From Octopus vulgaris (lineage: Eukaryota): a DNA stretch of 64,000 nt. The position numbers and the translations under genes were made by a program. Under the pieces are notes generated by a model, which was not told the origin of the DNA, did no database searches, and was given only the letters and a program-made list of their open reading frames with translations. Positions 1,006 through 16,045 of this stretch are shown here, piece by piece; position 1 is the first letter of the stretch, and each line of letters begins with the position of its first letter. Where the stretch lies: the NCBI GenBank assembly GCA_951406725.2, contig OX597819.1, positions 98,270,001 to 98,334,000 on the forward strand, given 5' to 3'.

Positions 1006-1037
<32 letters not shown>

Positions 1038-1170
1038 CAACGGCCTCGAACACACAAGTGCAAACAAGGGAGACAGAGAAAGGCACAATGCCACTTATAT
1101 TTGAACACTATACAAATATTCCTTTAAAAAAACTTTTCTTTTAATTTTTCTAAATTTAATTATTTAATCG

Positions 1171-1214
1171 TTACAGTTGAAAAGGTCTCAAAATGACCGA
1201 AACCGGTACTGAAA
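1171..1214 (+). ncRNA. Hammerhead motif, U3-A8 core variant
   Basis: cag-TTGAAAA-ggtc[tcaaaat]gacc-GAAA-ccgg-TA-ctg. Confidence 0.7.
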
Positions 1215-1259
1215 TGTTCTTTATAAAATTATTTTAGCATTTTCTATTTTGACTTGTTT

Positions 1260-1300
<41 letters not shown>

Positions 1301-1523
1301 TATGAATGAATGAAATGGTGTTGGGAAATTGGGACTATGACGGTGATGGATAACGAACCTCTGAAACGAGATTGAGAAGACGGCGTAAAAATTAATGGGG
1401 CTTTAGTGTGAATATTTAGGGAAAGAATGAAGAGAGAGAGAGACAGAGGTAGAAATAGAGATAGAGAAAGGTAGGAGAGATTGAGTGAGAACGATGGAGT
1501 GAGGGAGATTTATACTGAAAAGC

Positions 1524-1589
<66 letters not shown>

Positions 1590-2471
1590 ATAAGAGCGTT
1601 GAAGGAGAAAGAGAAGAGAATGTGAAAGTGTGCTGAGAGTCGGAAGTTTGACGTGAGGGGTGGATACAGGAAGAATGTGAGGAGAGAGACAGACAGAGAA
1701 AGAATGAGAGATAGACAAACAAAAAGACAGACAGTGATAGAGGGGGAGAGAGGAGGAGAAGTGATGGAAGTAAAAACTGAAATTTTGGTAAAGGAATATG
1801 AAATAGTGAAAGAGGAAGAGTGGTGAGAAATCTAGAGTGACATAGTAAGGGAGTAGGAGTAAAAAAATGAAAGTGAGGAGCAGACTGATTAAAGAGTAAA
1901 TTAAATAAATTGAAAGGTTGAATGAGTAAAAGTGAGAGGAGAAGAAGAGCGATTAGAATGAGACAGAGGAAAAAAGAATCTATGAAAAAAGCTACATTAA
2001 GAAGCTCATGGGAGGAGTTAAGGGAGTTAGTAGGTGTGTCAATGGAGAGGAGGCGTGTCTTATATATATATTTTTTGGACGTTGGATCTCAGTGGCTGTG
2101 TATATCTGTAAATGTTGTTGCTCTGTTTGTTATTGTTTAACCCTAAGTAAACCGTGATCGAGCAAAACGGACGTACGATTAAAGGTATTCCAGCCTTGAC
2201 CATCATGCCTTTTTCCTATGTGGAGGAAACACACGACAACATTATCCAATGATTATCCAATGGATCTTTTAAGTCAGTAGGACATGATTTGAGGAAAATT
2301 TGGCTGCTATTTTTTTTTAGCGAAAGGTTTGTATGTGTATATATGTGTGTGAGTGTGTGTGGATGTTTGCGTAAATATTTCTGTAACCATCAATCAATAA
2401 ATGTGTGGTCTTCAAATTAGCAAATACAAACCTACCTACCTACATACATACATACATACATACCTACCTAC

Positions 2472-2535
<64 letters not shown>

Positions 2536-2624
2536 TTATCTCTCCATCGATTTGTCTGTCTGTCTGTCTTTCCCTTTATACATATATATTTCTCTGTCTG
2601 TCTGTCTCTCTGTCTGTGTCTGTT

Positions 2625-2714
<90 letters not shown>

Positions 2715-2740
2715 ATATATATATATGTAGTCATAAATAC

Positions 2741-2775
<35 letters not shown>

Positions 2776-3088
2776 TGTGCGTGTGTGGCTGCTTTCCAAC
2801 CACATAGATACGGTTTCTGTTCTACTGCGTGGCACCTTTGGCAAGTGTCATATACTAGAGCCTCAGACCGACTTTGTGAATGAATTTGGTAGACAGAAAC
2901 TGAAAAAAGCTTCGTCAGTCGGAATTTAAGTTAACATTCATTTGAGCATTGCTCAGTCTTATCTGTATTGAGTTTATTTTACTCTCACCAAATCAGTGTG
3001 TGTACTCATGTACACAGAAACACACATACACACATATATATTAGCATATATATTTGTGTGTGTTAGTATACATATATGTATTAGTATG

Positions 3089-3141
<53 letters not shown>

Positions 3142-3634
3142 GTGTTTGCCGCCCACCATCACTTGACAACCAATGCTGGTGTTTCCCCGTAACTTAGCGG
3201 TTTGACAAAATACACCAATAAAATAAGTACTAGGCTCACAGAGAATAAGTCCTGTGGTCGATTTCTCCGACTAAAAACCCTTCAAATCGGTGCTCCAGCA
3301 TAGCTGCAGTCAAATAACTGAAACAAGTAAGAGAATAAAAGAAAAATCCATACAAATAAAAATATATAAATATATACATCTAAATATAAATGAATATATA
3401 TACATACTTCGGTTTTTGTCTGGTTTGCAAGGTTCTTTATATGAATTTGTGTGTTGAAACAAATTTTGTTGTGGTCTGGGGCAAGTCATGCTTAATATCT
3501 AACACACTCACCGGTTCAATTTCCATTCATTTATTACTTATAATTTTTCCTTTCCCCAAAAATATTTGTTGCTTTTGCAACCTTGTCAATAGACATAAGA
3601 ATATAAATGAATATATAAACAAATGTATGCATGT

Positions 3635-3670
<36 letters not shown>

Positions 3671-4174
3671 GTGTGTGTGGGGAAAGTAAGAAGAAAAAAG
3701 CGAAAATGCACATTGGATATCAAAAAAATAATGGCTTTTTTCGGAAAAGTAACGATAAATATATACAATGAGATGAACTGGGATAGAATTAAGAGGAATA
3801 AAAGTCATGAATTGTTAAAGGTATTCAAAGTCATACCGGTTTCGTCAATTACTGTTCACTAGCTTTGAATGCACACCGATTATCAAACGGTATTGGGTCT
3901 AATTGTCCCTGAGTAAAAAGATTATGTGTGAGGGAGGTAAGTAGTTCTGGTTGTGGTGCAGTTAGGGTAGGTATGATACTGTAATAAGAATGGTGTATGG
4001 GATGTATGGGAATTAGTGGTATTATTGGTAAGGTTAGTAGTGTTCTGTATTAGGCTATGCGTTCATGTTAAGTTGCGGGTGGAATTTATTGATCCAGAAC
4101 TACTTATCTCCCTTACACATAATCTTTTTAGGGACTAGTAGACCCAGCGCTGTTTGATAATCGGTGCGCATTCA

Positions 4175-4212
4175 AAGCCAGTGAACAGTAATTGACGAAA
4201 CCGGTATGACTT
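4175..4212 (+). ncRNA. Hammerhead-like motif, G3-C8 core variant (inverted twin at 3828-3865, minus strand)
   Basis: aagcca-GTGAACA-gt[aattg]ac-GAAA-ccgg-TA-tgactt. The same core is present in both arms of the inverted repeat. Confidence 0.55.
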
Positions 4213-4245
4213 ATATTCCTCTTAATTCTACCGCAGTTCATCTAA

Positions 4246-4627
4246 TCTATATATATAAAACTGTAGTTGTGTGAGTGTCTGTCCCCTTCGATTTAGATTC
4301 CTAACTACTCCCACATTTTGCGGTGCAGTTTAACCAAAACCGGGTATCTTATGGTCGTGATTCATATCGAGCCCTTCTGGGTCTACGATGAGTCTACGAT
4401 TTTAAAAATAATTTACCATCATTTTTTTCCATTTTCATGTATATTTTTTTAAAGGGAAGTAACTCTCTAAAAATGTCTACGATGAGTCAACGATTTAAAA
4501 AAAAATTTACCATCATATTTTTTCCATTTTTAATGCATTTTTTTGCTATATTTTTGCTATAACTCTCTAAAAATGCTGTATAGTTATTTCCCTTACAAAC
4601 TCGAGCAACGCCGGGCGATACTGCTAG
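4246..4627 (+). mobile_element. Non-autonomous Helitron
   Basis: 5' TC(tatatatataaaa) and 3' imperfect hairpin (ctcgagcaacgccggg) followed by CTAG. Inserted between A and T with no TSD; the empty site is visible in the opposite arm of the 3679-4716 inverted repeat. Confidence 0.85.
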
Positions 4628-4833
4628 TTGTATATATTTATCGTTAGTTTTCATAAAAACAGTCTATTTTTTTCGTATCCAATGTGCATTTTCGCTTTTT
4701 TCTTCTTACTTTCCCCGTATCTCTTCCACGTGTAGTTTCTATTTTCTGCTCACTCCCCACAAAAAACCACGACGTGGATTCTGTTGGGACCAGTAAGAAA
4801 CAATTATCAACTTTTTATTACACTTTTTAAAAT

Positions 4834-4881
4834 ATTTTTGATAAGGTTCGATTTTTCAAGAAGAACCGAAACATGTAAAAT
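4834..4881 (+). ncRNA. Hammerhead motif, U3-A8 core variant
   Basis: attt-TTGATAA-ggttc[gatttttcaagaa]gaacc-GAAA-catg-TA-aaat. Confidence 0.7.
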
Positions 4882-4976
4882 TTCTAAGAAAATTAAAATT
4901 TATCTTATATAGTGGCGTTTTCAAACTTTTTTTTATAAATATATACCCACTCGTATACGACCTACACTTATTATAA

Positions 4977-15660: not shown

Positions 15661-16045
15661 CGGTGAAGGTGGGAGGGGAGAAAACGGAATTAGAAAAAGA
15701 TTACAAATGTTTACTATTTTTGTTATGGAAAGTTAATAATAATGAAAAGTGTAGCAATGCTTCATTTCCTAACTCGACAGGCAAATAACAACATGACCGC
15801 CCAAACTCAAGATCTTTAGCGAGACACCACTTTATATATGGATGTACCTGATGTGACCCAGACTGCAAAATGGATGCAACACAACATCCGCCCATAAGGG
15901 ACAGTAGCAGGATTGGTCGAAACGATCGTCGTACAAAATAGACTAATACCAAATTCATCTTCTGGTTACTTAATCTATTATTATTATTATTATTATTGTT
16001 GTTGTTGTTGTTGTTGTTATTGTTGTTGTTGTTGTTATCATTATT

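Follow-up and report, generated by a model that had tools for sequence, protein, structure and literature searches.

A 64,000-nucleotide stretch of Octopus vulgaris DNA (contig OX597819.1, positions 98,270,001 to 98,334,000; hereafter the window) contains four minimal type I hammerhead ribozyme motifs, with cores beginning at 1177 (+), 3859 (-), 4181 (+) and 4838 (+). The literal core C3-U4-G5-A6-N7-G8-A9 is found in 0/4 of them and a Watson-Crick pair between positions 3 and 8 in 4/4: TTGAAAA at 1177-1183 (+) and TTGATAA at 4838-4844 (+) carry U3-A8, and GTGAACA at 4181-4187 (+) and 3859-3853 (-) carries G3-C8 in both copies. Textbooks count C3-G8 among the tertiary contacts of the active hammerhead, and crystallography and engineered swaps back it. 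We propose that the motifs are probably minimal hammerheads from the pseudo-long terminal repeats (pLTRs) of three related families of Penelope-like retrotransposons, that the parents' copies likely worked as slow, dimer-dependent ribozymes, and that a Watson-Crick 3-8 pair was selected in them. The family-wide occurrence of the swapped pair suggests, as far as sequence comparison can tell, that evolution keeps the pairing and not the letters.

A relaxed-core scan of both strands left positions 3 and 8 free and asked for a stem II of at least 2 bp, GAAA, a 6-nt palindromic stem III, UH and stem I. Applied to the 64 kb, it returned exactly the four strict hits (1177, 4181, 4838 and 3859), and so reproduced the positions, cores and type I topology claimed in an earlier annotation made from the sequence alone (the original prediction); one hit in total, with 3 and 8 unpaired, came from 20 versions of the window shuffled in 100-nt blocks. 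The three-way junction of stem I, core 3-9, stem II, GAAA, stem III and UH is complete in all four motifs, and U4, G5, A6, A9, G12, A13, A14, A15.1-U16.1, H17 and G10.1-C11.1 are all found in 4/4. Stem III is a 6-nt palindrome only (ACCGGT in three motifs, ACATGT in one), which provides 2 pairs as a monomer and 6 as a dimer, and the cleavage triplet is GUA in each.

The hammerhead of family 1 (1174..1211, +) is built from stem I 1174-1176/1209-1211, core 1177-1183, a 4-bp stem II at 1184-1198, GAAA at 1199-1202 and the palindrome at 1202-1207, with a predicted cut after 1208. In family 3 (4834..4881, +), core 4838-4844 is followed by a 5-bp stem II (4845-4867), GAAA (4868-4871) and the palindrome ACATGT (4871-4876); the predicted cut lies after 4877, and the 4 bp of stem I are A-U only. 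The two G3-C8 motifs, of family 2, are arms of one inverted repeat (3815-3910 / 4130-4225, 85% complementary). The plus-strand motif (4175..4212) has core 4181-4187, a 2-bp stem II at 4188-4196, GAAA at 4197-4200, the palindrome at 4200-4205, a predicted cut after 4206 and 5/6 pairs in stem I, the distal part of which is lost; its minus-strand twin (3823..3870, core 3859-3853) has a stem II of 2 bp, a predicted cut after 3834 and 10/11 pairs in stem I. An alternative register through an NTGACGA overlap in stem II was rejected, as it is absent in subfamily B of the G3-C8 lineage and leaves no stem II.

Searches built on CUGANGA miss these variants, as had been foreseen. Rfam left the G3-C8 motifs unreported on 3780-4240 at E<=10, and for the whole window the four motifs were absent among the matches listed (150 of 331); a CUGANGA descriptor is quoted in PMC8557442 (papers are cited here by such accessions, each from the part of its text that was available). 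The only hammerhead among those listed matches is canonical and lies at 15842-15936. It is a type I motif with an insertion of ~50 nt in loop II and scores 33 bits against a cut-off of 34.

The swapped pairs are the states of whole families in the genome searched (G000). All 30 fetched loci of family 1 have U3-A8, and a family 1 pattern with position 7, position 8 and loop II free yielded 1897 matches against 0 for the reversed control, with A8 in 99 of the first 100 listed. For family 3, 1163 first-look candidates were obtained, 40 were scored and 30 loci fetched; U3-A8 was present in 35/35 distinct copies (41 rows less 6 duplicates). Family 2 gave 678 candidates, 40 of them scored, and the 30 BLAST-picked copies of subfamily 2A comprised 28 with G3-C8, one with G3-A8 and one with G3-G8. 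BLAST-picked copies are the best matches to the window, and we therefore also ran the family 2 pattern with 3 and 8 free: among its 21 matches, G3 occurred in 21/21 and C8 in 20/21. The family counts (30/30, 35/35 and 28/30) uphold the contention that paired changes at 3 and 8 are unlikely to arise by random decay and exclude the outcome that the original prediction had named against itself, a CTGANGA consensus with copy-specific variants. We give next to no credence to the view that the family consensus is CUGANGA and the window cores are copy-specific decay or chance matches. No evidence in its favour was found, although one copy of family 1, L223 (G000:C13:524775-524806), has canonical C3-G8; against it, the paired variant is the family state in all three families, stem III ACCGGT with GUA is combined with C3 in only 19 matches, 4 of them G8, and 20 x 64 kb of shuffled sequence held 1 hit.

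The pair also varies around family 2. G3-C8 is shared by four subfamilies (A, to which the window copies belong, B, C and D), whose pLTR consensuses are 73-95% identical and which differ at N7 and in loop II; no conserved loop II sequence is evident across them, and between families the letters of stem I vary while its pairing stays. The majority of A3-U8 copies fall in a subfamily that is sister to B and has a consensus 97.8% identical to that of B. The two sister consensuses differ at 6/276 columns, two of which are positions 3 and 8, a coincidence with a chance of 4e-4 as computed post hoc. Other diagnostic columns (for example, T in 21/24 vs 2/18) also mark the A3-U8 lineage, and several of these are CpG sites. 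CpG decay was ruled out as the source of G3-to-A and C8-to-U in subfamily B, where the contexts are AG and CA.

Copies of subfamily B were also picked blind to the core, the query being confined to 161 nt on the 3' side of a G3-C8 hammerhead. Forty other places were fetched, 4 of them without a scorable core, and the remaining 36 copies had A3-U8 (31), G3-C8 (3), G3-U8 (2) or A3-C8 (0); the two G3-U8 copies fit a wobble intermediate and are too few to show one. U4, G5, A6, A9, G12, A13, A14, A15.1-U16.1, H17 and G10.1-C11.1 were in their majority state in 31-36 of the 36. In a pLTR tree of 111 of the 123 clade copies, computed with positions 3 and 8 masked, a branch with an SH-aLRT of 100 has all 27 A3-U8 rows to one side, interspersed among 17 G3-C8 rows, and the 62 rows across that branch include no A3-U8. 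Only this grouping is used, because 65/108 inner branches are unsupported and the flanks are partly non-homologous. By parsimony we infer that the switch ran from G-C to A-U, since the opposite direction needs three gains. Comparing core with flank conservation across subfamilies (163/226 columns invariant) was discarded as a test, the patterns having fixed the core.

A second A3-U8 group, clade Q (L184, L201, L244-L252, L257, L283), stands apart from the G3-C8 clade. It comprises 14/17 A3-U8 copies, 2 with A3-C8 and 1 with G3-U8, and has stems I of its own with compensatory changes and GUA or GUC sites; at position 3 (context CG/CA), CpG decay may have acted here. An upstream piece of an open reading frame (ORF) was found in only 2 of its copies. 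Clade Q hammerheads also turned up unasked in the flanks of L020, L058 and L196. The 3-8 covariation that the original prediction had asked to be checked is thus real and wider than claimed, as it takes in A3-U8 families too. Together with canonical C3-G8 families, the U-A, G-C and A-U families make all four Watson-Crick pairs natural in one genome.

A census of 3-8 states was taken by hand, on the first 100 listed matches and from the first contigs only, with allowed lengths of stem II that vary by pattern. The general G3-C8 pattern matched 177 times (control 59) and the C3-G8 pattern of the same shape 1330 times (control 141), fewer than the 1897 swapped-core ACCGGT matches of family 1 alone. 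With stem III fixed as ACCGGT plus GUA and position 8 free, G3 gave 131 matches (control 0), the first 100 being C8 in 83, A8 in 8, U8 in 6 and G8 in 3; A3 gave 211 (control 4; U8 82, A8 10, C8 6 and G8 2 in the first 100), and C3 gave 19 (control 2; A8 14, G8 4, C8 1). Of the A8 rows under G3, A3 and C3, most are changes of individual copies and share their stem II with the large U3-A8 families. With the same stem III and site, a non-G3 census with short stem II returned 1361 matches (control 2), of which the first 100 were U3-A8 (81), U3-G8 (12), A3-U8 (6) and C3-A8 (1). Stem II measures 1-3 bp in the purine-3 families, and one of 2 bp is found in a U3-A8 family of the same genome as well. 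The U3-G8 rows belong to a family (L174, L181, L071; G000:C1:68054399, 70848756 and others) that lacks one base at the cleavage site or in stem I, whose strands pair only when shifted by 1 nt; L181 holds a long open ORF piece.

These counts bear on a quite unlikely alternative, in which ribozyme function was lost in the clade, and positions 3 and 8 drifted in master elements, happened to be complementary and spread by hitchhiking. The independent events are indeed few, families 1 and 3 being sisters (see below), the U3-G8 family amplified in spite of its shifted stem I, and the purine-3 lineages look extinct. Drift does not, however, predict that the three non-canonical family states (U-A, G-C and A-U) should all be Watson-Crick, that mismatches should be confined to scattered copies, about as many as post-insertion decay would produce, that 2 of 6 differences in 276 columns should fall on 3 and 8, or that stems I and II should keep pairing though their letters change.

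All three families are, to judge from their sequences, located in the terminal repeats of related Neptune/Nematis-type Penelope-like retrotransposons. Family 1 is represented in the window by a pLTR fragment (1037..1311, +), a 5'-truncated copy of a young, high-copy element; it is 86-94% identical to the repeats of copies L118, L112, L114 and L069, full-length ones included, and the copies are nearly identical to one another. A DNA search with 1120-1250 of the window returned no matches, because common words are skipped. Long copies of family 1 encode reverse transcriptase (RT) and GIY-YIG domains in a 784-aa frame (RVT_1, E=2.9e-08, above the cut-off; GIY-YIG, E=1.5e-04, 22.4 bits against a cut-off of 22.6). 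In L118, direct repeats of 537 nt that are 97.8% identical and contain one hammerhead each surround the ORFs in the order pLTR-ORF-pLTR. Two overlapping ORFs were observed in 4/4 full-length copies examined (L118, L112, L113, L114), the upstream one ~410 aa long from its first Met and the RT-endonuclease frame in the -1 register; a Pfam search with the upstream ORF gave no match. The overlap contains a U UUU UUA heptamer; programmed -1 frameshifting is one possible reading, a 3' splice acceptor another.

Family 3 is present as a pLTR fragment at 4744..4975 (+, 3' end approximate), 85-94% identical to L036, L040, L043 and L034, and ORF remnants lie upstream of its motif in L040 and L043. In family 2, a gap of ~170-230 nt separates the ORF end from the motif downstream in those alignments that extend to the C-terminus. 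By tblastn, the ORFs of families 2 and 3 are RT-endonucleases, mostly at 40-65% identity. Same-strand ORF hits were obtained upstream of 30/71 G3-C8, 12/38 A3-U8 and 37/87 U3-A8 motif contexts; with the RT plus GIY-YIG frame, they support the Penelope-like hosts proposed earlier. The hammerhead lies in both direct repeats around the ORFs in family 1 (L118) and 3' of the ORF end only in families 2 and 3, for which no 5' hammerhead copy was found. A CX4CxxC linker is intact in families 1, 3 and 2 (L018, L015, L208) and in the L169 family, and decayed or frameshifted in 4/10 rows shown; a CX2-5CxxC linker is a mark of Neptune and Nematis (PMC8557442).

An ORF tree was computed from the C-terminal 304 columns of 36 rows, all of them G000 copies, with no outgroup and a bootstrap that had not fully settled; rows of <170 residues, any beyond three in a motif class and 4 with an upstream ORF that looked like another element's were left out. 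A branch with 100/99 support splits off the G3-C8/A3-U8 clade, and families 1 and 3 group as sisters, also at 100/99. The elements had been described as unrelated and are instead related Penelope-like families. As families 1 and 3 are sister lineages, U3-A8, which had been counted as arising twice, is probably one inherited state. Rooting the tree with the main canonical family failed, an ORF piece being present in only 2/20 fetched copies (70-80 aa, 37-41%).

G8 acts through its 2'-OH, and pairing with position 3 holds G8 in place; another Watson-Crick pair should therefore be able to hold the geometry, at a cost in rate. In line with this, the severe damage done by G8C is partly undone by C3G (PMC8495972), and an engineered C3G/G8C pair partly restores cleavage in the hammerhead of a Penelope-like element, where cleavage needed the element's protein (PMC11167929). 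Minimal hammerheads work as dimers (PMC4209133). Within a single transcript, two copies of the pLTR would pair by way of their palindromic stems III and crossed stems I, and the paired copies of a master element would cut after GUA and so trim the element RNA out of a longer precursor. A double hammerhead can be drawn for 12/12 representatives, 0-15 kcal/mol above the dimer minimum, and it is lower in energy than two folded monomers in 8/12. The minimum-energy monomer folds lack the hammerhead core, as expected for such motifs, and were not used as evidence. The window copies themselves are probably inert: they are 5'-truncated remnants, none has a partner of its own family in the same orientation, the arms of family 2 would pair between themselves, the motif at 4181 has lost its distal stem I, and stem I of family 3 is weak.

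Selection might alternatively keep the fold because it does something else than cleave itself efficiently, for instance serving the RT-endonuclease as a binding or folding platform or acting as a dimerisation signal, with the 3-8 pair retained for shaping the fold. We regard this as unlikely. It would accommodate the low activity in vitro, for which the authors leave room for other functions (PMC4209133), the very short stem II of subfamilies C and D, and the finding that cleavage is dispensable for insertion in vitro and required the element's protein (PMC11167929). A non-cleavage role is at odds with the retention of G12, A13, A14, G5, A6, U16.1 and H17 in their majority state in 33-36 of the 36 blind copies and with the H17 rule, which is upheld with GUA or GUC in clade Q; moreover, the 3-8 pair forms in, and is specific to, the active hammerhead conformation (PMC3884650).

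Several further observations weigh against slow, dimer-dependent cleavage under selection, in addition to its dispensability in vitro. No RNA-seq reads ended at the cut site in the study of PMC11167929, successful Penelope-like clades exist without canonical hammerheads (PMC8557442), and minimal hammerheads cleave poorly in vitro (PMC4209133). Relative to the dimer minimum, the double hammerhead is less stable by 5 to 9 kcal/mol in the three window motifs with ACCGGT and by 15 kcal/mol in family 3, both computed without tertiary contacts, and by hand count stem II of the G3-C8 subfamilies C and D is 1 contiguous pair. The G3-C8/A3-U8 copies are old (median 7-10% from the subfamily consensus) and outnumbered by those with U3-A8; neither an intact ORF nor two pLTRs paired on the same strand were found for them. 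A strict Watson-Crick pair is not always kept, as the U3-G8 family accounts for 12 of the first 100 matches in its census. The coupled G3-C8/A3-U8 switch is one or few lineage events, and the pLTR tree, with its 11 parsimony changes and many unsupported inner branches, is too noisy for counting switches. Lastly, the remaining core bases were prescribed in the census patterns, and part of their conservation among subfamilies B, C and D therefore follows from the search itself.

The family 2 pLTR of the window is a 5'-truncated insertion with an inverted arm at 3675..4093 (-, 82-87% identity to other copies), an inversion junction near 4092/4093 and a direct arm at 4092-4748, an arrangement typical of Penelope-like elements (PMC8557442). 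The direct arm is split into 4092..4245 (+) and 4628..4748 (+), the pLTR match resuming at 4624-4748. Between the two parts lies an unrelated high-copy insert (4246..4627, no strand assigned; 92% match in L069), which is outside the ribozyme, has a 5' TC and a 3' hairpin plus CTAG, and sits between A and T. From these ends we take the insert to be Helitron-like. It is of very high copy number, has an internal 94-nt direct repeat and dominates the contigs aligned to 3700-4950. Elsewhere in the genome, four near-identical G3-C8 copies of subfamily C lie on one contig (L262, L263, L268 and L269; G000:C17) and are more likely segmental duplicates than products of recent transposition. Tandem canonical hammerheads ~359 bases apart, like those of metazoan retrozymes, were noted at G000:C1:20002278-20004542, 92886705-92887859 and 44912338-44912725. 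In the commonest canonical-core family (L284-L303), the usual register after GAAAC(A/G)TGTT shows no stem I, and pairing is possible only directly after GAAAC. A distant RT piece is carried by two copies; in another part of the set, a 253-aa open frame upstream of the canonical hammerhead (L293:518-1276) resembles the C-terminal part of another non-LTR retrotransposon.

Przybilski and Hammann (2007) reportedly engineered a C3G/G8C hammerhead in which the swapped pair partly rescued cleavage. Lunse, Weinberg and Breaker (RNA Biol) are said to have described small, dimer-cleaving hammerhead variants with a diminished stem III in Penelope-like retrotransposons, and their alignments may hold G3-C8 or A3-U8 rows, which is the main risk to novelty. 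In the literature searched, which did not extend to those alignments or to some supplements, natural G3-C8 or A3-U8 was not found and only engineered cases appeared. Natural covariation at this contact was, as far as we found, known for U3-A8 only. The U3-A8 part of the original prediction is already published for Penelope-like elements, having been described in natural hammerheads in 2011 (Perreault et al., PMC3088659) and in about 1,300 hits of Schistosoma mansoni Cercyon elements in 2014 (Cervera and De la Pena, PMC4209133). Likewise, of the expectation that a natural G3-C8 form with a 2-bp stem II would be most unusual, the G3-C8 lineage stands and the 2-bp stem II does not, since natural hammerheads with a stem II of two pairs, or even one, were already reported (PMC3088659) and a U3-A8 family here has it too. 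Interest lies in the G3-C8 lineage and in the A3-U8 sister coupled to it.

Tentatively, and with real reservations, we suggest that this clade abandoned C3-G8 and used all three other Watson-Crick pairs, and that G3-C8 and A3-U8 are natural, active and unpublished cores that are invisible to CUGANGA and Rfam searches. If so, some elements reported without hammerheads may carry swapped ones, and descriptors should permit any 3-8 pair. Retention of G3-C8 over long divergence, followed by the change of both bases to A3-U8, would add comparative evidence for the pair in its four Watson-Crick forms. It also bears on the open question of whether the hammerheads of Penelope-like elements are under selection, given that insertion in vitro did not require cleavage: the joint changes of core bases in master lineages that went on propagating are an argument that the active fold was of importance.

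Compared with known systems, the elements share with Neptune and Nematis (PMC8557442) the RT, a CX2-5CxxC linker, a C-terminal GIY-YIG domain, pLTRs and the inverted 5'-truncated copy; those have one ORF, whereas family 1 has two overlapping ones. Like the minimal hammerhead ribozymes of PMC4209133, the motifs are of type I, lie in pLTRs of RT plus GIY-YIG elements, have G10.1-C11.1 and a palindromic stem III, are predicted to act as dimers and occur in many solo and opposite-strand paired copies. Unlike them, they have no extra base between 9 and 10.1, a stem II of 1-3 bp in the purine-3 families, and whole families with G3-C8 or A3-U8; in Fig. S3 of that paper all rows (56 by its legend) have C3 or U3, and one row (Saccoglossus) is U3-G8. 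Among the variants of Perreault et al. (PMC3088659), U3-A8 is the sole 3-8 variant reported in the part available, and the window families add G3-C8/A3-U8. A close counterpart of the G3-C8 core is the engineered C3G/G8C hammerhead of Frangieh et al. 2024 (PMC11167929), which has the same swapped pair and is laboratory-made, whereas the swap described here is natural, family-wide and accompanied by an A3-U8 sister.

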